DNA of 32,000 nucleotides, taken from assembly GCA_964449865.1 (NCBI GenBank), contig CAYVBR010000015.1, positions 203,341-235,340 of the forward strand. The letters are read 5' to 3'. Under the pieces are notes generated by a model, which made no database searches, had not been told where the DNA came from, and saw nothing but the letters and a program-made list of their open reading frames with translations. Shown piece after piece: positions 2,124 to 24,708 of the stretch; position 1 is the first letter of the stretch; the number at the start of each line of letters is the position of its first letter. The position numbers and the translations under genes were made by a program. Origin of the DNA: an uncultured Candidatus Nitrosotenuis sp. GTDB lineage: Archaea > Thermoproteota > Nitrososphaeria > Nitrososphaerales > Nitrosopumilaceae.

Positions 2124-4285
2124 GTCTGCAGCCACAGGAACTAGACTATCTTTCAAAAAAAATCAATAGAAAACCAAACGACACCGAAATGCACATCGTT
2201 GCAGCTGAATGGTCTGAGCACTGCTCGTACAAGTCTTCAAAAAAACATCTCAAAATGCTCCCCATGTCTGGACCCAGAGTACTCAGGGAGAAGGGATTTG
2301 ATTCCGGGGTCCTAGATGTCGGGGACGGATATGTGATAACTGTCCATATTGAGAGTCACAACCATCCGTCTGCAGTTGAACCATACGGCGGTGCGGCAAC
2401 AGGGGTGGGCGGAGTGATTCGCGATATCTTGTCTGCAGGTACCAGACCTATCGCACTCCTTGACGGGCTTCGTTTTGGAAACATAGAGAAAGACTCGCAG
2501 GCAAGATGGCTGTTCAAAAACGCCGTGACTGGAATAGCCGACTATGGCAACTGCCTTGGCATCCCAACAATTGGCGGCGAAGTAGAGTTTGACGAATGCT
2601 ATGCAAACTATGCTCTAGTTGATGTTGCATCAATTGGATTTGGCAAAAAAGAAAGACTGATCAAAAATCACGCCGATGTTGGCGACGTGGTGGTTTTGCT
2701 TGGCGGCTCGACTGGGCGAGATGGAATCGGGGGTGCCCAATTTGCATCTGACTCGCTTGAAACAGAAGACCGCTCGGCAGTGCAGATCCCAGACCCTTTC
2801 ATTGAAAAATTAATCATCGAGGCAACCCTTGAGGCAAGAAATGAGGGCTGCATAAAGGCGCTAAAGGACCTAGGAGGCGGCGGCCTTTCATGCGCGATTT
2901 CAGAAACTGCTGACACGCTTGGAATTGGAATTGAGCTTGACGTAAACCGCGTCCATACCAGAGAATCAGACATGAATCCGAGGGAGATAATGACATCCGA
3001 ATCCCAGGAGAGAATGCTGATTATTACAGATAAGAAAAAACTTGTAAAACTAGAATCAATCTGCAAAAAATTCCGAGTTACATGCTCTGTCATCGGCAAG
3101 GTCACATCTGACAAAATGATGAGAGTGAAAAACAACGACGACGTGGTTGCGTCAATTCTTGCTGAAATTGTTGCAAATGCGCCACTGCTTGACAGGCCAT
3201 CAAAGGAGCCGAAATATCTTAAAGAACTGCAGAAAAAGAAGGAACCAAAACCTGCCTCTGACCTTTCCAAGGTTACCATGCGGCTCCTATCATGCCCAAA
3301 CATTGCAAGCAAAATCTGGGTGTATGGACAATATGACCACGAAGTTGGGATACGAACCGTAGTGAAGCCTGGAATGGATTCTTCCGTACTTCGTCTGGAT
3401 AATGGAAAATACTTGGCGGCAAAAATTGACGGAAACCCAAAACAGTGCTACATTGATCCAAAAAACGGTGCAATCGGATGCTTTGAAGAGGCATGCAGAA
3501 ACGTGGTGTGCACGGGCGCTACTCCAATTGGAATGGTCGACCATCTGCAGTTTGGCAACCCCGAAAACCCGGAAATCTTTTGGACATTTTTAGAATCATT
3601 AAAGGGAATATCTGAATTTTCAAAACACTTTGACATACCGTGTGTCGGGGGAAAAGTAAGCCTGTACAACGAAACCCCTCAGGGACCAATCAAGCCGACC
3701 CCAATTATTGGCGTCTTGGGGCTGATTGACAAAAAACCACTGCACACACAAAAATCAGAACAAGGTGACATCCTGATTCTGGTTGGGACTACCAAAGACG
3801 AGCTTGGTGGCTCTGAATATTATGAGTACATTCACGAGTTTATTGGCGGAAAATGCCCAGTGGTTGACTTTGCCGAATCGAAACTCAACATGAAGTCAGT
3901 ACTGCACATAATTGAAAGCGAATGGGCAAGAAACGTCCATGACTGCTCAAAGGGCGGCCTGGCAATTGCAGTGTCTGAGATTGCCATGACTAGTGGCATT
4001 GGGTGTGTGGTGTCAATTGACAACGTGCCGTCACCAAAATTGCCTGATGACAAGATTCTGTTTTCTGAGAGCCATTCTAGATACTTGTTATCTGTATCAA
4101 AATCAAACCTTGACGCGGTGCTTGGATATCTTAGGGAAAAGAATGTAACATTTGGAATAATTGGCAAGTTTGAGGGAAAAAGCATCGTGTTTTCCAAAAA
4201 CAAAAATGTAATTGTAAAACTAAGCGTTGATAAAGCACATGACAAGTGGTTTAATTCACTGAAGGATTTGGTTTTGCATGGTTAA
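2120..4285 (+). CDS. purL: phosphoribosylformylglycinamidine synthase subunit PurL (FGAM synthase II)
   Basis: 721 aa with AAEWSEHCSYKS, ESHNHPSAVEPYGGAATGVGGVIRD and duplicated AIR-synthase-like domains. Sits in a purQ-purL-purF operon context. Confidence 0.95.
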   Translation: MSLQPQELDYLSKKINRKPNDTEMHIVAAEWSEHCSYKSSKKHLKMLPMSGPRVLREKGFDSGVLDVGDGYVITVHIESHNHPSAVEPYGGAATGVGGVIRDILSAGTRPIALLDGLRFGNIEKDSQARWLFKNAVTGIADYGNCLGIPTIGGEVEFDECYANYALVDVASIGFGKKERLIKNHADVGDVVVLLGGSTGRDGIGGAQFASDSLETEDRSAVQIPDPFIEKLIIEATLEARNEGCIKALKDLGGGGLSCAISETADTLGIGIELDVNRVHTRESDMNPREIMTSESQERMLIITDKKKLVKLESICKKFRVTCSVIGKVTSDKMMRVKNNDDVVASILAEIVANAPLLDRPSKEPKYLKELQKKKEPKPASDLSKVTMRLLSCPNIASKIWVYGQYDHEVGIRTVVKPGMDSSVLRLDNGKYLAAKIDGNPKQCYIDPKNGAIGCFEEACRNVVCTGATPIGMVDHLQFGNPENPEIFWTFLESLKGISEFSKHFDIPCVGGKVSLYNETPQGPIKPTPIIGVLGLIDKKPLHTQKSEQGDILILVGTTKDELGGSEYYEYIHEFIGGKCPVVDFAESKLNMKSVLHIIESEWARNVHDCSKGGLAIAVSEIAMTSGIGCVVSIDNVPSPKLPDDKILFSESHSRYLLSVSKSNLDAVLGYLREKNVTFGIIGKFEGKSIVFSKNKNVIVKLSVDKAHDKWFNSLKDLVLHG

Positions 4286-9437: not shown

Positions 9438-9959
9438 ATGTCTACATTACTTGAAAAACCAATCAAAATTAGTCGTATAATGACAATCTCTGTCGAACAC
9501 GCCCGTGCACTAGAAGACCCGGCACGAGCAAAAATTGTGGAAATCCTGTATCACAAAAGAATGACCGCTGAACAAATCACAAAGGAACTGCAGAAGACAG
9601 GGCACAACAAAGCAATCACAACAATTCGACACCACATTGACATTCTAAAAGAAGCAGGCCTGATTGAAATTGTAAAAATCGAAGAGGTGCGGGGAGCCGT
9701 TGCAAAGTTTTACGGAACATCTACCAAGTTTCTTGGGAATCATTCTTCAAAAGACTTTGACACCAAGTATTCTTCAATTATAGAAAACACATCTGCAAAA
9801 ATCGAAAAGATTCTCGAAAGCATTGCAAAAAGACCTGCACTGCAAAAAAAGACAGACAAGCAGGGTTACGGCGAATTTCTTCTGATGGAAATTGTCAACC
9901 GCGCAACAGCAAAGGCTCTGGAAACAAAAGACTACACATTACAAAAAAAGATCAAGTGA
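9438..9959 (+). CDS. ArsR-family winged-helix transcriptional regulator (173 aa)
   Basis: The N-terminal wHTH pattern ALEDPARAKIVEILYHKRMTAEQITKELQ...ITTIRHHIDILKEAGLIEIV is ArsR/SmtB-like. The C-terminal half is helical and not recognised. Confidence 0.8.
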   Translation: MSTLLEKPIKISRIMTISVEHARALEDPARAKIVEILYHKRMTAEQITKELQKTGHNKAITTIRHHIDILKEAGLIEIVKIEEVRGAVAKFYGTSTKFLGNHSSKDFDTKYSSIIENTSAKIEKILESIAKRPALQKKTDKQGYGEFLLMEIVNRATAKALETKDYTLQKKIK

Positions 9960-19409: not shown

Positions 19410-19956
19410 ACAAGAAGAATTATTCCAAGCCACATTTGATGTTCCAGCTAAAGTAAAACTCACACTCAAAAAACACATGCTGCACGTAGAGGGCCCACTA
19501 GGCAAGACATACAAGAATTTCAAGAAAATCCCAGTCGGACTCGAAGTTAAGGATAACAAGGTAACAGTCACGGCAGTAAACTCGAGGAAAAAGTATCATG
19601 CAATTGCAAACACTGCACTTTCAATAATTCGAACCCTGTGCGAGGGAGTAGTAACTGGCTATACAATAAAGATGAAAATAGTCTATGCGCACTTTCCAAT
19701 CACTGTCAAAACTAAAGACAAGCTTGTCCTAGTTGAGAACTTCCAAGGAGAACGTGCACCAAGAACTGCAAAAATCCACGGAACAACCAAAGTCACCTCA
19801 AAAGGAGACGAGGTGGTCGTATCAGGACCAGTGCTGCAACACGTAACACAAACTGCAGCAGAAATCCAATCAAATACCAAAGTCAAAAACAAAGATCACC
19901 GAGTCTTTCTTGATGGAATCTACCAATTCTACAAGGAAAAAGGCATCGAAAAATAA
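19399..19956 (+). CDS. rpl6: 50S ribosomal protein L6
   Basis: Two-domain L6 pattern (GPLGKTYKNF, MKIVYAHFPITV). Overlaps S8 by 11 nt. Confidence 0.93.
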   Translation: MSTKQEELFQATFDVPAKVKLTLKKHMLHVEGPLGKTYKNFKKIPVGLEVKDNKVTVTAVNSRKKYHAIANTALSIIRTLCEGVVTGYTIKMKIVYAHFPITVKTKDKLVLVENFQGERAPRTAKIHGTTKVTSKGDEVVVSGPVLQHVTQTAAEIQSNTKVKNKDHRVFLDGIYQFYKEKGIEK

Positions 19957-19970
19957 TTTTTCAAATTTTC
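19957..19970 (+). terminator. candidate oligo-T terminator of the r-protein operon (TTTTTCAAATTTT)
   Basis: T5 and T4 runs directly after the L6 stop. Archaeal termination typically uses oligo-T tracts. Confidence 0.4.
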
Positions 19971-20016
19971 AGACTTAGTAAGGATTAAATCGCATACGCC
20001 TAAGACAAAACCTGTT

Positions 20017-20090
20017 GCCGCCCTAGCTCAGCGTGGTAGAGCGCCTGACTGTTAATCAGGGGGTCGTCAGTTCAAGTCTGACGGGCGGCG
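20017..20090 (+). tRNA. tRNA-Asn (anticodon GTT), no encoded CCA, no intron
   Basis: Hand-folded cloverleaf. Acceptor GCCGCCC/GGGCGGC, D arm GCTC..GAGC, anticodon stem CCTGA/TCAGG with loop CTGTTAA, T arm GTCAG TTCAAGT CTGAC, discriminator G. TATA-like GATTAAAT lies at 19983-19990. Confidence 0.92.
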
Positions 20091-20097
20091 CATAATC

Positions 20098-20119
20098 TTT
20101 CTAAACTCGAGTTTTGAAA
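20098..20119. repeat. variant copy of the 22-bp palindrome (TTTCTAAACTCGAGTTTTGAAA), followed by a T-rich tract; possible tRNA terminator hairpin
   Basis: 19/22 identical to the consensus. The two centre changes (T9>C, A14>G) are complementary and preserve the dyad. TTTGTTTTT follows at 20122-20130. Confidence 0.6.
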
Positions 20120-20178
20120 CATTTGTTTTTGCATCTTGTAATTTATGATGTGCTGATCTGAGAGTTTAATTTTCAATC

Positions 20179-20200
20179 TTTCTAAATTCGAATTTAGAAA
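20179..20200. repeat. 22-bp perfect palindrome TTTCTAAATTCGAATTTAGAAA (copy 1)
   Basis: The sequence is its own reverse complement and is identical to the copy at 22074-22095. Confidence 0.9.
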
Positions 20201-20290
20201 TATAGATCGATGCAACCATTTGGTTTACTCTATTAGACCGTCTGGATCTAATATCTGATCGCACATTATGAATAATGCAGGAGGTTTACG

Positions 20291-20545
20291 ATGGCCAGAA
20301 TTAAAAGGGCCAACAGATATTGTGTTGACTGTGGGGCAAGACTGGTGTACTACCCACGCCTTTCAAACCCAAAAGCCCCAAACGAGCACCGAGTTTTGGT
20401 GTATGGGTGCCCTGACTGTACAGTTGACTTTGAAAAACCAAAGCTTTTCTCAATTCGACGAAACCAGGTTGACGATCCGCTGGAAACAGTAGAGATTGAG
20501 ATAGTCGAAGCTAGGAAACTCCTGGAAAAAACACCCGTGGCATAG
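20291..20545 (+). CDS. small zinc-ribbon protein (84 aa), function unknown
   Basis: CVDC...CPDC pairs. A strong SD AGGAGGT sits 8 nt upstream of the ATG. Preferred over the overlapping alternative-frame ORF 20268-20492. Confidence 0.65.
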   Translation: MARIKRANRYCVDCGARLVYYPRLSNPKAPNEHRVLVYGCPDCTVDFEKPKLFSIRRNQVDDPLETVEIEIVEARKLLEKTPVA

Positions 20546-20607
20546 ATCAAGCCTTGCATTATCTGGCCCGATAGAACTTTTTATCCAACCGTACCAAGAA
20601 TTCTTCC

Positions 20608-21147
20608 GTGGAAGACGTAAAAAGTACTTGGGGCAATCGGTTCATAATTGCCGCAATACTTCAGGGCGGAATAGTAACAATGATGGCGCTAAGCATGGTT
20701 GGTGCCCAGGCTGTTTTTACCAAAGTTAACATGATTCAATTTTTGTCTCTGTCTTTTGAAGGACCTGCAAAATGGGTATTTCTTGGACTGATGTTTTATC
20801 TGATACTTATTGTTGCAATTGCAGTAACTGCCGTATTTTACAGCCATTTGGAAATTAACCTAAAGCGTAGCTTTTCCGGCAAATCAAAATTCTTAGCCTG
20901 GATTCACCTGATTGGAATGAATGTGGGCGGAACTGGCACAACACTGCTTATGGTATTTGCAGGACTTAGCGGCTCTGGAGTGATGGACATATTCACGACA
21001 GGGGAGATTGGCAAACCAAACCTTGCAGTAATGGACTCGTTTATTCCGCCAATCGGACTGTTCATTGGATTTCTTGCAATTGGGGTAATGTGCGGAGGCC
21101 TGGCGTACACGATGGCGTATCTGAGAAAGCCGTCCTCAATCCAATAA
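20608..21147 (+). CDS. integral membrane protein, about 4 TM helices, unknown function
   Basis: Four long hydrophobic segments. GTG start lies 27 nt downstream of the TATA-like ACTTTTTATCC (20575-20585). Confidence 0.65.
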   Translation: MEDVKSTWGNRFIIAAILQGGIVTMMALSMVGAQAVFTKVNMIQFLSLSFEGPAKWVFLGLMFYLILIVAIAVTAVFYSHLEINLKRSFSGKSKFLAWIHLIGMNVGGTGTTLLMVFAGLSGSGVMDIFTTGEIGKPNLAVMDSFIPPIGLFIGFLAIGVMCGGLAYTMAYLRKPSSIQ

Positions 21148-21594
21148 TCTGGCCATTTTCTTCACATTGCAAAAAGTTTGGCGTGGTTTTATGGAAAAAA
21201 ACCCTACCCTTTTGCCGCAAACTAGGGCAAAAGAATTGAGAATTTGCGCATAATCTCAGAATCCCTGATTATCCGATTTGTGTCAAGAACTGTAAAAATC
21301 TTGGATTTTTCTGATGATTTTTCACCCTAAATTCGGTTTTTGCTGGGGTTTAGCTTTTGTTCGGGGGACAAATAGTTTTGGCACCTTTACCTGGGTAATG
21401 GGGATGTTTTGGCACTTGCCTGCATTAGTTACGAACAAGTGTTAAACCCCCCTGAAAAACGGCTGATCCTGAAAAAATCATCGTTCTCACAATTGGGGGT
21501 TGACTATACGGGGGTTTAGCTTTTACGAACAAATTGCAATATTTGGCAAAAACTCAAAATAATTCAAATTAAAGAAGGTCTTGATTCGTAACAC

Positions 21595-22062
21595 ATGAAA
21601 AAGCAGCCAAAAAATCAGAAAATCAGAATAGCCCCAAAAAAGGAATATGATAATTTTAGAAAATACTTTGCTTTTTCCTGCGTTGACTTGGTGATATTTG
21701 ATGGAAAGTCCGTCCTGCTGACAAAACGAACTAGGGACCCATACAAGGGATACTGGCACTTGCCTGGCAGCATGATACACAAAACTGAGAAAATGACTGA
21801 CACGGTAAAGCGCTCTGCAAAAGAAGAGCTCGGCCTTGATGTAAAAATTGAAAAGTTTATCGGCGTCTACGAAAGCCTGGACAGGTTTCGCCACGATGTC
21901 TCAAATGGATTTGTCGTTTCAATAAAGGGCGGTCAACTAAAGACCGACCACCAAAGTAGCGATATTGGATTTTTTGCAAGACTGCCGAGCAGGATCATTC
22001 CGCATCATCGTATGCTGATAAAAGACGCCATGCGGATTGTCCGTGCCGACTCTTATGCCTGA
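21595..22062 (+). CDS. NUDIX hydrolase family protein (155 aa) with a deviant Nudix box
   Basis: The segment LPGSMIHKTEKMTDTVKRSAKEELGL aligns to GX5EX7REUXEEXGU, with G>S and RE>RS substitutions. Confidence 0.75.
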   Translation: MKKQPKNQKIRIAPKKEYDNFRKYFAFSCVDLVIFDGKSVLLTKRTRDPYKGYWHLPGSMIHKTEKMTDTVKRSAKEELGLDVKIEKFIGVYESLDRFRHDVSNGFVVSIKGGQLKTDHQSSDIGFFARLPSRIIPHHRMLIKDAMRIVRADSYA

Positions 22063-22073
22063 AAAACCATATG

Positions 22074-22095
22074 TTTCTAAATTCGAATTTAGAAA
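22074..22095. repeat. 22-bp perfect palindrome TTTCTAAATTCGAATTTAGAAA (copy 2)
   Basis: Perfect dyad, 11 nt after the Nudix stop and 17 nt upstream of TTAATTAA at 22113. Confidence 0.9.
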
Positions 22096-22112
22096 TATTC
22101 TGAAAAGATCAG

Positions 22113-22120
22113 TTAATTAA
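22113..22120 (+). promoter_or_regulatory. candidate TATA box TTAATTAA of small secreted peptide gene A
   Basis: Exactly 29 nt upstream of ATG 22142, the same geometry as paralogue B. Confidence 0.55.
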
Positions 22121-22141
22121 CTGGGAATTAAAAAATTGAGC

Positions 22142-22369
22142 ATGGCTGGTAAACTACTCGGACTAGTTGCAATAACTGTCCTCTTGTCTACAATATTGGT
22201 CATGGCACTATCATCTGAACAATATGCTGAAGCAAAGACTTCAAAAATGTCTCCAAAACACAAGTTCAGCAAATGGGCTCATAACAAAGTATGTGGCGAC
22301 CAACTCTGTGAAGGAGACTCCTACTACAAAACACCACTTAAGATAGGAAAGAGCACACCGCACCGATAA
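22142..22369 (+). CDS. small secreted Cys-containing peptide, paralogue A (75 aa precursor, about 44-aa basic mature part)
   Basis: Signal peptide MAGKLLGLVAITVLLSTILVMALSSEQYAEA with an AxA site. The mature region shares TSKM..HK[FY]S.W..N.VCGD.LC.G..Y.K with the next gene. The ORF opens at TTG 22136. Confidence 0.7.
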   Translation: MAGKLLGLVAITVLLSTILVMALSSEQYAEAKTSKMSPKHKFSKWAHNKVCGDQLCEGDSYYKTPLKIGKSTPHR

Positions 22370-22431
22370 GAAACAACAATTTTTTCATTTTTTGCACTTC
22401 TTTTCATGCTCTAGTGCAGCAAAATCTAATA

Positions 22432-22453
22432 TTTCAAAATTCGAATTTAGAAA
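22432..22453. repeat. 22-bp palindrome, copy 3 (TTTCAAAATTCGAATTTAGAAA, 21/22)
   Basis: One mismatch (T5>A). Lies 18 nt upstream of TTAATTAA at 22472. Confidence 0.85.
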
Positions 22454-22471
22454 TAGCAAAAAATGGTTACT

Positions 22472-22479
22472 TTAATTAA
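22472..22479 (+). promoter_or_regulatory. candidate TATA box TTAATTAA of small secreted peptide gene B
   Basis: Exactly 29 nt upstream of ATG 22501. Confidence 0.55.
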
Positions 22480-22500
22480 TCCAACGGGCGTATGCATAGC

Positions 22501-22776
22501 ATGTTGAGACTAGTTGCACTTGTAATGATAAGCGTACTGCTGTCGACTGCTATACTTGGAGCAGTAAGTTCAGGTCAGTTTGCAGACGCAGCAAAGGCAT
22601 CTAACACGTCAAAAATGCTCAGGCACAAGTACTCACACTGGGTCGGAAACCAGGTATGTGGCGATGAACTGTGTCCTGGTAATCCCTACTTCAAATGGAA
22701 CATGAAATACAGAACTCATGTATCCCCATACGACAGTTATGAGCATCAAGACTTGCTCAAAGTAAAGCACCAGTAA
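22501..22776 (+). CDS. small secreted Cys-containing peptide, paralogue B (91 aa precursor)
   Basis: Signal peptide MLRLVALVMISVLLSTAILGAVSSGQFADA and a shared VCGDELC core with paralogue A. The ORF opens at ATG 22492; ATG 22501 fits the promoter geometry. Confidence 0.7.
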   Translation: MLRLVALVMISVLLSTAILGAVSSGQFADAAKASNTSKMLRHKYSHWVGNQVCGDELCPGNPYFKWNMKYRTHVSPYDSYEHQDLLKVKHQ

Positions 22777-23113
22777 TTCTGACAAAATACGCTAAAACAC
22801 ACCTGTTTCATGAGATGACATCTTACACAATAATTTAGAAACTAGTGCGAACTGCCTAAAATTTTAAAGATTTGCTTTTTCTCAAATATCGCGATACCGC
22901 ATAATATGAGCAGCCTAAAATCAGGCTTATTTGTTCTGAAAATAGTTTTTCGGAAATTTGTCAGATTCCGCGCCAAAGTAAAATCATACCGACGCCTGTT
23001 AGTAGGAGAATCCCTGTACGGCCGATGTAATTTGCAGATTCGCTCAAATCACTAGGGTGCCGACTGGTGATTATTTATTAATTTTCTAACTGCTCAAACT
23101 CTGAGGTGGAAAT

Positions 23114-23659
23114 TTATTTTGCCGCCATTATGGAATCTAGTGCTTTTGTTAGTTTATCAAAACCGTACTTGTTAATCATTGCAGATAGCTCTCTAGTTAT
23201 CATTGCTGCCTCGACGTCGTTGACCGCTTCATTCTTTCTTGCTTCAAATTCTCTTTGCTCAACAACAGATGTGTCTGTTCTAAACATGTTCATTTCTTCT
23301 TCGTATTTTCTCTGTGCTTCCTTGATTTTCTCGATCTGGGACACTTTTTTCTGTAGTTGGGCGTTGACCAGTTTTACGAATTGATTTGCGTTTCGCGTGT
23401 CTTGTCCTGCCTCGATGAACTGATCCTTGACCCTCTCGGAACGATCCCTTTTGTCTAACTCCTCTTTAAAGAACAGTTTTCTTGTTCCTCCGCTTTCTAT
23501 AACGTCCTCTAAATCGTCATTTGTAATATTCTTCTCAGTCACATCTCTTTTCGCTATGTGCTTTTCAACCATTAGATTCTCTAAAAATCGTGTGAGTAAT
23601 ATCATGTATTTTGTATTAATTGAACAAACGCCTCTGTAAATCCATGTTCCTAAATTCAA
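23114..23659 (-). CDS. hypothetical coiled-coil protein (181 aa)
   Basis: Long charged heptad-like region (QFVKLVNAQLQKKVSQIEKIKEAQRKYEEEMNMFR...). No family recognised and the start is uncertain. Confidence 0.55.
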   Translation of the reverse strand: MNLGTWIYRGVCSINTKYMILLTRFLENLMVEKHIAKRDVTEKNITNDDLEDVIESGGTRKLFFKEELDKRDRSERVKDQFIEAGQDTRNANQFVKLVNAQLQKKVSQIEKIKEAQRKYEEEMNMFRTDTSVVEQREFEARKNEAVNDVEAAMITRELSAMINKYGFDKLTKALDSIMAAK

Positions 23660-23663
23660 TATT

Positions 23664-24059
23664 TTGTTAAATCTAATTCATCATGACTCTATTAAGAAAT
23701 GCACGCCTGCTTACTGCGTGGAAGGACTAGAGGTAAAACTGCCAATTCCAAAAAGGTTTACAGATGCGCAGTTACGCATGCTTGAAGACTATTTTAGAGA
23801 GATGCCGATTGAGGAAATCCTAACCGGATTAAAGTTTGCAAAAAACAGGTGGTCTGCAAAGGACGCCGGAGTTCTAAAGGTCGGGAGAAAAAGCATTATA
23901 CAAAAAGAAGTCCATTCCGTTACGAACGAGCAGGCGCAGTGGAGGCTGAAGAACTGGAAAATGATGATCTCAAATTATAGGCGACGCGGATACAGCTACC
24001 CGACAATATCTAGAATAAAGAAAATCCTTGTTGAAAAAAGTAAAAAGAAGTCTAAATGA
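23664..24059 (+). CDS. hypothetical basic protein (113-131 aa), function unknown
   Basis: The ORF opens at TTG 23664, only 4 nt from the divergent gene. GTG 23718 would give the 59-bp divergent spacing around the AT-rich TCTAATTCAT seen at other gene pairs. The 3' end overlaps cdvB by 8 nt. Confidence 0.5.
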   Translation: MLNLIHHDSIKKCTPAYCVEGLEVKLPIPKRFTDAQLRMLEDYFREMPIEEILTGLKFAKNRWSAKDAGVLKVGRKSIIQKEVHSVTNEQAQWRLKNWKMMISNYRRRGYSYPTISRIKKILVEKSKKKSK

Positions 24060-24708
24060 GTGATTCTTTTTTCTGCAAAATTCCAGTTGGGATGTCGCTT
24101 GGTGGCTCTGGGATGATTGCCCTTGTCTGGCCTTCGATTACTGCCTGAGCCTCTTCCAAAATTGCAAGCGTGTCTGAGTTTGAACTGTATGTTGTGACTG
24201 TCGTATCTGATGCGCTCATAGAAGAGCCTGTCAGCACGTCTCCTAGCACTTGTGATAGGTTTTGCATTGATGATGTTGCCTCTGGCATTATTCCGCTCAG
24301 CGATGCGCCTAGTCCCTTGATTACTGACATGCATGGGCTTAGTGTTACCACGATGTCTCCAAGTTCTGACACTGTGTTTAGTCTGAGCTGAATCTGTTCT
24401 AACGCAAGTTTTGCACCGTTTACCATGTTGTGCATTTTTCTAATCTCGAGCAATTCCGTGGCATATGCCTTGGCATAATGCTGGTTGTTGGCTTTTTGAG
24501 CTGCGATTATTTTATTAAAAATGTAATCATTTTTCTGCTTTATTTTTCCCGCGATTCCGTCAAGTTTTACTATCTGAAGCTGGAGGTTTTTCTGCGCTAC
24601 GTCTATCTTGTTTTTGAGTGGTACGTCTGGCTTTACTCTGTCTAGTATTTTCTGTGAGAGATTGTCCCCGCGTCCCATATCGTTCCATCTGTCACTTAGC
24701 GACCCCAT
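24052..24708 (-). CDS. cdvB: cell division protein CdvB (ESCRT-III / Snf7 family), short form without a C-terminal winged helix
   Basis: Collinear similarity to my recollection of Sulfolobus CdvB: AYATELLEIRKMHNMV..LALEQIQLRLNTVSELGD..L.P.M, then EEAQAVIEGQTRAIIPEPPSDIP, which is a MIM2-like Pro-rich motif. Confidence 0.88.
   Translation of the reverse strand: MGSLSDRWNDMGRGDNLSQKILDRVKPDVPLKNKIDVAQKNLQLQIVKLDGIAGKIKQKNDYIFNKIIAAQKANNQHYAKAYATELLEIRKMHNMVNGAKLALEQIQLRLNTVSELGDIVVTLSPCMSVIKGLGASLSGIMPEATSSMQNLSQVLGDVLTGSSMSASDTTVTTYSSNSDTLAILEEAQAVIEGQTRAIIPEPPSDIPTGILQKKESLI

Follow-up and report, generated by a model that had tools for sequence, protein, structure and literature searches.

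The ammonia-oxidising archaea (AOA), which rank among Earth's most abundant microbes, carry a palindromic DNA site of 28 bp that is nearly invariant across all the AOA orders sampled. It is built of two inverted arms around a short spacer, lies between genes regardless of their orientation, is largely restricted to one chromosomal neighbourhood, coincides with the end-points of rearrangements and is also present on small episomes. From these features we infer, tentatively, that a site-specific recombinase uses the palindrome as its core site, which would have the build of a dif site and have been borrowed by the episomes; the reader being a recombinase, its putative identity and any recombination in present-day cells all belong to the interpretation. 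To our knowledge, almost nothing has been learned about cis-acting chromosome sites in AOA, for which we know of no genetic tools.

Copies and architecture of the site

The window, that is, the whole 32-kb stretch of Nitrosotenuis DNA that was analysed, contains four copies of the palindrome within 2.4 kb (A to D in Table 1), all of them intergenic. An initial annotation had listed three, two identical copies of a 22-mer (B and C) and a 21/22 copy (D), at coordinates and in intergenic positions that a palindrome scan of the window reproduced. Its statement that only half-sites occur elsewhere overlooked copy A, which has 3 mismatches and whose core lies 6 nt past tRNA-Asn(GTT), and it holds for the rest of the 32 kb, where no further near-copy was found and the next best match has 7 mismatches. 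Since none of 100 dinucleotide-preserving shuffles produced any match at up to 3 mismatches, no copy is expected by chance. The lone right arm downstream of copy D is possibly a remnant of another copy. An Rfam scan of positions 19800-23200 returned the tRNA as its sole match.

Table 1. Sites and neighbouring features in the window.
Feature	Position	Strand	Remarks
ArsR-type HTH gene	9438..9959	+	Candidate binder if the site is an operator (synteny)
tRNA-Asn(GTT)	20017..20091	+	Linkage to downstream site copy kept in both AOA orders
Copy A, 28-bp element	20095..20122		Core 20098-20119, TTTCTAAACTCGAGTTTTGAAA; orthologous first copy after tRNA-Asn in many AOA loci
Copy B	20176..20203		Core 20179-20200, perfect; end 90 nt upstream of Zn-ribbon gene start
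Conserved 90-nt leader and 84-aa Zn-ribbon gene	20201..20290 and 20291..20545	+	First gene of B-C segment
Remainder of B-C segment	20608..22062	+	Membrane protein 20608-21147; conserved non-coding 21150-21594; Nudix gene 21595-22062
Copy C	22071..22098		Core 22074-22095, perfect; 11 nt past Nudix stop, 17 nt before TTAATTAA
C-D cassette	22113..22369	+	TATA-like TTAATTAA 22113-22120; small secreted protein 1, 22142-22369
Copy D	22429..22456		Core 22432-22453, 1 mismatch; 18 nt before TTAATTAA
Second cassette	22472..22776	+	TATA-like TTAATTAA 22472-22479; small secreted protein 2, 22501-22776
Lone right arm TAATTTAGAAA	22831..22841		After second secreted-protein gene
p23664-family gene and CdvB/ESCRT-III-like gene	23664..24708	+ and -	CdvB-like gene at 24052-24708 (-)

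The two small secreted proteins are old paralogues (43-48% identity in tblastn alignments), and the DNA upstream of their genes cannot be aligned except for the palindrome and the TATA box. The spacings of these boxes, 17 and 18 nt from the palindrome and 29 nt from the ATG, came out on recomputation as first annotated. The earlier suggestion of selection on the palindrome itself is borne out, and so is a reading of the site at the level of DNA. Neither Pfam nor PDB sequence searches found a relative of the Zn-ribbon protein, and a PDB sequence search with the p23664 protein gave no match. The distance between the copy B-type site and the Zn-ribbon start is kept at 90-91 nt in about 20 loci. 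In other AOA a site copy lies directly upstream of the p23664-family or the CdvB-like gene; no such copy exists in the window.

The conserved unit can be written AT-R-TTTCWAAA-YTCGAR-TTTWGAAA-Y-AT, with two 11-bp inverted arms and a 6-bp spacer. Its flanks were read from 112 sites in related genomes at positions that the site search had left unconstrained: T occupies -1 in 96% and A occupies -2 in 79% of them, with R at 0 and the mirrored bases on the opposite side, and conservation ends at 28-30 bp (-2/+25). When only the arms were specified in the pattern search, the spacer measured 6 bp in all 117 arm pairs and the centre read YTCGAR in 114 of them. The arms vary independently, complementarity at the variable positions being at the chance expectation. 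Each arm is conserved on its own, which favors reading by a protein over pairing and adds to the support for a recombinase. Strand-specific G·U counts are confounded by phylogeny. Pairs of sites within a locus share their centre more often than pairs from different loci (0.51 versus 0.38), a result that refutes the idea that copies of the same genome avoid a common centre to block recombination.

Chromosomal neighbourhood, rearrangements and circular elements

The site is present in Nitrosopumilus, Nitrosarchaeum, Nitrosopelagicus, Nitrosotenuis, Nitrosotalea, Nitrososphaera and Nitrosocosmicus, and is kept even in tiles of 52-61% GC. In two independent scans about 90% of the chromosomal matches fell in a syntenic neighbourhood formed by the end of a ribosomal-protein operon, tRNA-Asn, cdvB and biotin genes. 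In a sample of 80 genome tiles and 120 metagenome contigs, these marker genes were found beside 70 of the 80 genome matches and 100 of the 107 non-viral metagenome matches, which rules out a dispersed regulon; on 12 large contigs or chromosomes, one 8-kb tile each contained the site. The search of related genomes proposed in the initial annotation revealed an intergenic site conserved across AOA orders. A generic repeat or a sequence absent from relatives, two of the outcomes that the annotation had set against its proposal, does not fit a site with few copies, at one locus, that orthologous loci also carry. The bacterial matches of the first scan, all in high-GC contigs, represent another word, TTTCGAAATTCGAATTTCGAAA, and were left out of account, and a literature text search did not find the palindrome sequence in paper texts.

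Within this neighbourhood 52 of 197 loci have 2-4 copies. Near-identical copies lie 0.1-6 kb apart, and their orthologous positions and gene orientations are kept across many genera; tandem copies are spaced 60-92 bp, with no helical phasing. All gene contexts are represented among the intergenic sites, tandem, divergent and convergent, the last of them exemplified by a site enclosed by the ends of a PNPOx-like and a Lys-rich gene and by a Nitrososphaera site 5 nt from the stop of the convergent gene. At the tRNA-Asn site the upstream tRNA is constant and the downstream gene varies. Many copies lie 3-15 nt past a stop codon or tRNA, and in many Nitrosopumilaceae the operon of the ArsR-type orthologues ends 9-40 nt from a site copy. 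Genes tend to converge on the cluster, the share of coding bases pointing toward it being 72% across loci and, in the window, 83% on either side; the skew over these 32 kb is confounded by the coding strand. A replication origin (ORB) was set aside on account of this convergence, of the lack of a cdc6 gene nearby and of site-less episome relatives whose gene set is unchanged.

Two inversions end at copies of the site. In Nitrososphaera the bioB-bioF segment has one orientation in three loci (L020, L115, L078) and the other in four (L034, L050, L061, L064), and a 3.1-kb segment is inverted between L039 and L094. Both inversions probably go back to one evolutionary event each and could have arisen from homologous recombination between 28-bp inverted repeats. 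In Nitrosotenuis relatives variable cassettes adjoin the copies: the gene at the Nudix position differs, homology with one relative (L018) picks up again at 22068, beside copy C, and both secreted-protein cassettes are missing from another (L086). As for recombinase genes, a tyrosine-integrase gene adjoins one of the two bounding copies in L039, and a Pin-like serine recombinase is encoded 0.3-1.4 kb from a copy in Nitrososphaerales. There the invertase gene stands beside one of the two sites that flank bioB-bioF, an arrangement not shared by the window or the Nitrosopumilales loci. It is unlikely that this Pin-like enzyme is a universal partner of the site, as its relatives (40-56% identity) form clusters of only 1-8 members and the enzyme is apparently confined to Nitrososphaerales; the L039 integrase, with 5 homologues only, was ruled out as a housekeeping XerA. 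Neither the window nor the surroundings of the sites yielded an Xer-type gene.

Outside the chromosome, 47 of 50 IMG/VR matches are members of a single family of circular elements, about 4.2 kb in size, each with one copy of the site. The copy occupies either of two intergenic gaps, in most cases between two divergent starts and in the L128 type in a convergent gap, and it is the sole feature that the elements have in common with their hosts. Pfam and PHROGs searches of the 47 elements gave no match to an integrase or Rep. Integrated elements were found neither by blastn and tblastx against host loci nor in four contig look-ups, and none of the site loci scanned contained both viral and host genes. 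All 120 homologues listed for a 239-aa episome protein are on contigs of at most 12.4 kb, the longer of which are concatenated variants.

What may read the site

At the mechanistic level, the 28-bp double-stranded site would be the target of a sequence-specific protein that binds as a symmetric dimer or tetramer and is most probably a site-specific recombinase, with one monomer on each arm and with strand cutting and exchange at the edges of, or inside, the central YTCGAR. The copies beside tRNA-Asn would mark an old recombination hot spot where segments have been inserted, lost or inverted. Circular elements with no recombinase of their own may carry one copy to exploit the host enzyme, either for multimer resolution, like plasmids with cer or psi, or for integration, like IMEX. 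This tentative reading is supported by the 11-6-11 build, the deep conservation of the site in one neighbourhood and its intergenic placement independent of gene context. Further support comes from the two independent inversions with their ends at copies, the nearby recombinase genes, the variable cassettes, the copies on episomes, the arm-wise conservation and the convergence of genes on the cluster. On the other hand, the stability of the copies in position and orientation across genera excludes frequent recombination between them. The recombinase reading is also weakened by the lack of an Xer-type gene near the sites, by the narrow distribution of the Pin-like and L039 enzymes, by the absence of integrated episomes, by the fact that homologous recombination can explain the inversions and by the sites that abut TATA boxes.

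That stability would be better accounted for by a chromosomal landmark whose binding protein is not a recombinase, i.e. a partition (centromere-like), terminus-organising, fork-barrier or SMC boundary site on which episomes hitch and where inversions are by-products of homologous recombination, an explanation that we regard as rather unlikely. Several stable copies in one conserved neighbourhood, independent of gene context and with independently conserved arms, agree with it, as do the accessory gain of the site by small circular elements and the convergence of genes on the cluster. The same traits recall parS and matS, short palindromes with several copies in one chromosomal region that are widely conserved irrespective of gene context; these are, however, shorter (16 and 13 bp), are scattered across tens to hundreds of kb, and have ParB and MatP as known readers. 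No partition or terminus protein was found near the AOA sites, and we know of none that would serve such a landmark, nor of any ParB/MatP-type reader in AOA. In addition, under the landmark reading it would be coincidence that the site has the exact 11-6-11 build, that two rearrangements end at copies and that recombinase genes lie close by. A bolder scheme, which we consider improbable, is that an AOA-specific protein reads the palindrome array beside cdvB, in the zone on which genes converge, and couples chromosome resolution or segregation to Cdv division, with the 4.2-kb episomes, as a family not described before, and other small elements riding on it; this would be a new chromosome-maintenance system rather than a variant of Xer/dif.

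Regulation of transcription has to be considered as well. An operator upstream of the TATA box was one of the two readings offered in the initial annotation, and it is unlikely in our judgement. It would bind a conserved homodimeric transcription factor at the BRE/TATA, either the ArsR-type protein, whose gene is syntenic in Nitrosopumilaceae, or an aCcr1-like cell-cycle regulator, and viruses would borrow it for their divergent promoters. The part of the proposal that stands is the geometry: besides copies C and D, some orthologous promoters have the site 4-27 nt upstream of TATA-like boxes, in Nitrososphaerales a gap of 4-5 nt separates it from the TATA of the p23664-family gene, it recurs 15-127 nt upstream of the Zn-ribbon, DUF2299, cdvB-like and secreted-paralogue families, and most episomes place it exactly between two divergent starts. 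The site also resembles archaeal operators (ArsR/SmtB 12-2-12; aCcr1 boxes) in being palindromic and BRE/TATA-adjacent at some genes, in the multiple boxes, in the link to a cdvB paralogue and in viral borrowing, and in Sulfolobus two or three aCcr1 boxes are found at division-gene promoters (bioRxiv 10.64898/2026.09.06.749720). Such a role leaves several other facts unexplained. Conserved sites occupy promoter-less convergent gaps in hosts and in L128-type episomes, linkage is to the upstream tRNA-Asn and not to the downstream gene, a single neighbourhood takes the place of a regulon, tandem copies lack helical phasing, and the ArsR operon precedes the site, which is at its 3' end. Regulation of biotin genes was ruled out because bioB has a BirA-box-like repeat of its own, retained within the invertible segment, and the RbkR operator because its Thaumarchaeota motif is TTAC-N10-GTAA (PMC5397151), unlike the AOA site.

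Two further explanations have little probability. It is very unlikely that each outward-facing half of the site (CGAA plus TTTAGAAA) acts as a BRE/TATA core promoter, so that the whole would be a bidirectional promoter. In its favor, the arms resemble TATA boxes, a number of starts are 19-40 nt away from the site, and for the Zn-ribbon gene no other TATA is obvious in the stretch from the site to the conserved leader. Against it, many sites have a gene end on one side or on both, separate and better TATA boxes are present between sites and starts, and 28 near-invariant bp far exceed the need of a core promoter. Most improbable is an RNA or DNA hairpin, be it a terminator, a processing signal or a REP/MITE-like repeat, which was the second reading of the initial annotation. 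The position of many copies just past a stop codon or tRNA and a possible stem of 9-12 bp speak for it. Nevertheless, the predicted stems are AU-rich and of low stability (-2.6 to -8.6 kcal/mol), in two of the four cases they do not surpass those of shuffles, and there is no U-tract or T-run. It is sequence, not pairing, that is conserved across orders, with covariation at chance level; some sites lie between divergent starts, and a low copy number at one locus is unlike REP or MITE elements. The hairpin reading is not supported.

Known systems and significance

The recombinase reading invites comparison with dif, the site where Xer recombinase resolves chromosome dimers, which in its canonical form is single-copy. 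Archaeal dif sites consist of two 11-nt inverted repeats with near-perfect arms and a 6-nt spacer (PMC8371274; PMC2958812; PMC5357621). The AOA site shares with dif/XerA and dif/XerCD the length of 28 bp and the 11-6-11 build, with near-perfect arms as in single-recombinase systems, as well as conservation across a large clade and confinement to one chromosomal region. It differs from them in being multi-copy and in a sequence unlike published dif sites, archaeal dif having been compared by description only. Owing to the four copies in 2.4 kb and the loci with 2-4 copies, it was not filed as a canonical dif. The episomes resemble cer, psi and IMEX systems (e.g. CTX-phi), where small recombinase-less replicons carry a look-alike of the host site, yet no integrated element flanked by two sites was found for them. 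Like the pdif modules of Acinetobacter plasmids, several AOA sites bound gene modules that differ in presence or orientation between relatives. However, pdif sites reside on plasmids, are of recent origin and possess asymmetric XerC/XerD arms, whereas the AOA sites are chromosomal, ancient and fully symmetric.

A likeness also exists to hix, gix and cix, the A/T-rich palindromes of about 26 bp used by the Hin, Gin, Cin and Pin invertases, whose half-site core, TTTWG..A..A, presumably resembles the AOA site. The Pin-like gene beside the site in Nitrososphaerales and the two orientations of bioB-bioF fit such systems. In contrast to them, the recombinase seems absent from Nitrosopumilales, the order of the window, the orientations are fixed in clades rather than switching, and we know of no enhancer for the AOA site.

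A near-invariant 28-bp site, found across AOA at one locus and on episomes, provides a concrete and testable handle on chromosome biology in these archaea. If it is an operator, it would be the first widely conserved regulator site in AOA. It is a candidate recombination target for vectors and integration tools, and the elements of about 4.2 kb are a candidate family of natural mini-replicons. In a lineage whose division relies on ESCRT-like Cdv proteins, the site may bear on the resolution of chromosome dimers, on segregation or on termination.

The 28-bp palindrome and its spread

The initial annotation recorded an exact 22-mer, TTTCTAAATTCGAATTTAGAAA, at two places in the window, copies B and C of the table, and a third copy, D, with one mismatch. 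These three are real, while the count was incomplete, as a fourth copy, A (TTTCTAAACTCGAGTTTTGAAA), had been overlooked. The intergenic placement holds for all four, and so does the spacing at copies C and D, from which TTAATTAA lies 17 and 18 nt away, respectively, followed by 29 nt to the ATGs. No match to the 22-mer at three or fewer mismatches was obtained in 100 dinucleotide-preserving shuffles (window GC, 43%).

A scan of one genome per species with the pattern TTTCNAAANTCGANTTTNGAAA returned at least 120 matches, about 80 of those listed coming from ammonia-oxidising archaea (AOA). The preservation first seen within the window extends to relatives: the palindrome is conserved across the AOA genera among the matches listed, namely Nitrosopumilus, Nitrosarchaeum, Nitrosopelagicus, Nitrosotenuis, Nitrosotalea, Nitrososphaera and Nitrosocosmicus. 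Flanks outside the scan pattern are also conserved at 112 AOA sites, with T at -1 (96%), A at -2 (79%) and R at 0, and the opposite flank mirrors this. Since these positions were unconstrained, the conserved unit is wider than the 22-mer: AT-R-TTTCWAAA-YTCGAR-TTTWGAAA-Y-AT, 28 bp, with 11-bp arms and a 6-bp centre. A pattern that fixed the arms alone found a 6-bp spacer in 117/117 cases and YTCGAR as the centre in 114/117. Genome tiles of 52-61% GC retain the AT-rich palindrome, unchanged or nearly so, together with the same neighbour genes; L006, L059, L071 and L079 are complete MAG chromosomes of this kind, labelled Nitrosopumilus or Nitrosopumilaceae and unusually GC-rich.

The bacterial matches of the first scan were set aside, as they carry a different word, TTTCGAAATTCGAATTTCGAAA, on high-GC contigs. 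This is another perfect palindrome, with at least 21 matches in high-GC bacterial MAG contigs (L005, L007, L011, L019, L032, L042, L054, L057, L066, L116 and others), sometimes two per contig, from Pyrinomonadaceae, Acidobacteriota, Anaerolineae and Methylomirabilota.

Coordinates of the copies and of associated features (L numbers, genome tiles or metagenome/IMG/VR contigs)
Feature	Sequence	Coordinates	Remark
tRNA-Asn(GTT)	window	20017-20091	
Copy A core	window	20098-20119	starts 6 nt past tRNA-Asn
Copy B core	window	20179-20200	with copy A, between tRNA-Asn and Zn-ribbon gene
Conserved 90 nt	window	20201-20290	copy B to Zn-ribbon start
Zn-ribbon gene	window	20291-20545	84 aa
Non-coding stretch	window	21150-21594	445 bp; GGGGTTTAGCTTTT repeated near 21345 and 21512
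Copy C core	window	22074-22095	11 nt past Nudix stop
Small secreted-protein genes	window	22142-22369; 22501-22776	tandem paralogues
Copy D core	window	22432-22453	between the secreted-protein genes
Lone right arm	window	22831-22841	past second secreted-protein cassette
Third secreted protein	L018	591-836	other strand
Interrupted tRNA-Asn	L089	~3480-3620	minus strand
Interrupted tRNA-Asn	L105	~3420-3560	minus strand
bioB promoter motif	L034	2691-2750	
bioB promoter motif	L050	7228-7287	
bioB promoter motif	L035	2141-2206	
Pin/Hin-like serine recombinase	L020	4995-5588	orthologues in L034, L050, L061, L115 and others
Tyrosine integrase	L039	2304-3317	= L180 10001-11014; Phage_integrase and SAM-like domain
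Circular-element family	L121-L170 (IMG/VR), also L171-L178		e.g. L129 1-4236
Site on short contig	L213	257-278	
Site on short contig	L194	2097-2118	
Site on short contig	L268	1915-1936	

One chromosomal neighbourhood

Among the matches listed, 70 of the 80 tiles from AOA genomes carry marker genes from a single neighbourhood: the end of the ribosomal-protein operon (S8, L6) with tRNA-Asn, the Zn-ribbon and DUF2299 genes, an ArsR-type/106-aa/PNPOx-like operon, a gene of the p23664 family (named after the window gene at 23664) paired with a CdvB/ESCRT-III-like gene, and bioB, bioF and bioA. Metagenome contigs, scanned independently, had 120 matches: 100 in the same neighbourhood, 13 in a viral family of 4.2-kb elements and 7 markerless. 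Twelve large contigs or complete chromosomes have one 8-kb tile each among the matches listed. The initial annotation had considered a generic repeat scattered without positional preference, which this clustering contradicts.

Positions are kept across lineages. A copy ends 90-91 nt ahead of the Zn-ribbon start, frequently behind one or two more copies, spaced 60-92 bp, that directly follow the tRNA; the DUF2299 gene has a copy 15-68 nt upstream. Copies also precede the p23664-family gene in Nitrososphaerales (by 24-39 nt) and the cdvB-like gene in Nitrosotalea and others (by 80-127 nt). In Nitrosopumilus a copy follows the PNPOx-like stop by 9-12 nt and faces a convergent Lys-rich gene whose stop is 43 nt away, and in Nitrososphaera a convergent gene ends 5 nt from the copy downstream of tRNA-Asn; at both positions there is no promoter for the site to serve. 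In a tally using gene calls backed by homology, 96 site flanks face gene ends, one third at 3-15 nt, and 91 face gene starts, mostly at 24-91 nt, with 12 convergent and 8 divergent settings. Fourteen apparent in-gene sites proved to be spurious ORFs across the tRNA region. The post-tRNA copy is tied to the upstream tRNA-Asn, and the downstream gene changes between orders.

Several local features accompany the copies. The 90 nt behind copy B, conserved across genera, might serve as a leader or as a second site for a protein. Their invariant blocks are TTAGAC-N6-GATCTAATA, forming a small hairpin without covariation, and ATGCAGGAGG, a Shine-Dalgarno-like box 7-8 nt ahead of the start, and their short TTAGA/TCTAA arms are an everted echo of the main palindrome's arms. 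The 445-bp stretch, which the Nitrosotenuis relatives L018 and L086 retain at 71-78% and which lacks an Rfam match, may be an unannotated RNA gene. The gene preceding copy C varies among Nitrosotenuis relatives: it is Nudix in the window, L090 and L055 (a Candidatus Nitrosotenuis MAG contig 86% identical to the window across 4.1 kb), an unrelated 194-aa gene in L018, where homology to the window picks up again 6 nt ahead of copy C, and, in L086, which lacks both secreted-protein cassettes, an opposite-strand 94-aa gene. The secreted proteins share a KVCGDQLCEG-like motif and occur in some Nitrosotenuis relatives, L086 having none. In Nitrososphaera L089 and L105 a ~34-nt interruption past the D-arm of tRNA-Asn, seen by eye, suggests a non-canonical intron; ARAGORN called no tRNA in either region.

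Rearrangements and small circular elements

The majority gene order in Nitrososphaerales is bioA, a Pin-like serine recombinase (Resolvase and HTH_7 domains), site, bioB-bioF, site, p23664-family gene and cdvB-like gene. In L020, L115 and L078, bioB-bioF is inverted between its two sites, carrying its own promoter along and leaving the outer flanks unchanged; as these three look related, the inversion is probably a single event. L094 has the order luciferase-like gene, site, NTP-transferase, SIS and bioD, and in L039 the luciferase-like gene and site are followed by a tyrosine integrase, the 3.1 kb of L094 inverted, and a second site copy, a second and independent inversion. The rarity of this integrase (five homologues) marks it as a mobile-element gene, not a housekeeping Xer; its lineage has three site copies.

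In Nitrososphaerales the Pin/Hin-like recombinase has a constant position between bioA and bioB, and its best 120 matches are 78-99% identical, conservation and synteny that are unusual for an enzyme of this type. The L039 integrase is inserted between a site copy and bioD in a marine thaumarchaeon; L179 has this integrase in split form, with ~5.6 kb of other genes between it and a degenerate site copy. At the bioB promoters of Nitrososphaera, TTGTAAACC-N15-AGTTTACAA spans a TTTTAATTA box and resembles a BirA (biotin repressor) operator.

The IMG/VR scan gave 50 contigs, 47 of which share six proteins, at 4.1-4.8 kb and 37-43% GC. Terminal redundancy, present in all but one of the 47, indicates circular genomes. 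Searches of Pfam and PHROGs with the ten largest ORFs of the representative L129 yielded no meaningful match, and neither an integrase nor a Rep was detected. The elements have only 30-60 bp around the site in common with the AOA loci, and no match at the protein level. The site usually lies between two divergent operon starts, where site-free relatives have a 54-nt gap; in the type of L128, L138, L153 and L160 it lies in the other intergenic gap, between convergent gene ends. Its presence in either gap makes it an accessory module acquired at differing places. The 239-aa family protein has 618 relatives in marine metagenomes, including Tara Oceans data; the best 120 are all on contigs of at most 12.4 kb, the longer ones being concatenated variants without host genes, and no integrated copy was seen among them. 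Some contigs of the family reach 240-430x coverage. L213, L194 and L268, short contigs bearing the site without markers of the host or of the 4.2-kb family, have virus-like coding content, either an N-terminus that is Arg-rich and capsid-like or several small Zn-finger proteins, and may be further kinds of site-carrying small mobile elements.

Candidate functions of the site

The initial annotation had offered a REP-like or terminator hairpin, a reading weakened by several results. RNA folds of the four window copies range from -2.6 to -8.6 kcal/mol; two do not exceed shuffles in stability, and none is followed by a U-tract. At 231 distinct host sites, the fraction of complementary pairs at variable positions was compared with the product of the marginals, as expected if the arms were independent: 0.77 against 0.73 at 5/18, 0.52 against 0.49 at 0/23, 0.94 against 0.94 at -1/24, 0.68 against 0.68 at -2/25 and 0.71 against 0.55 at 9/14, the only one of the five with an excess. 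The arms are conserved each in its own sequence, as expected for a protein that reads two half-sites; a base-paired structure does not predict this pattern. A bidirectional promoter is very improbable, and a hairpin, terminator or REP even more so, both readings being weak. What the data call for is a double-stranded DNA site that has a symmetric protein reader, functions at any intergenic place, is retained by all AOA in a single chromosomal zone and is useful enough to be copied by small circular replicons that lack recombinases.

The palindrome is tentatively read as a recombinase core site, dif-like in build. The archaeal Xer recombination site dif has been described as 11-6-11 with near-perfect arms (PMC2958812, PMC8371274, PMC5357621), a build shared by the AOA site, and replicons borrowing a host site have precedent in plasmid cer and psi and in IMEX elements (PMC5357621); the ~4.2-kb elements likewise carry a host-type site. 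The reading is favoured because of these parallels, and because rearrangements in two cases have copies as end-points and genes for recombinases are found nearby in two lineages. Unlike canonical dif, the AOA site is multi-copy, with copies stable over very long time. For these reasons it is not classed as dif, and also because no Xer-type partner was found in the window or beside the sites and because a terminus position is indicated only by gene orientation toward the cluster (72% of coding bases, both sides), skew in the window being confounded by coding strand. A landmark for partition, terminus or boundary functions, read by something other than a recombinase, would account better for this stability and is rather unlikely overall. 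The transcription-factor operator proposed initially, slightly more doubtful, suits the TATA-adjacent sites, where its geometry stands, and the ArsR synteny, but breaks down at the convergent sites and over the single-locus distribution. The motif of RbkR, a known regulator of Thaumarchaeota, differs from the AOA site (PMC5397151). A literature search of incomplete coverage found the site sequence in no paper text, nor any account of an AOA dif site or of the ~4.2-kb elements. The site is real, deeply conserved and directly testable.
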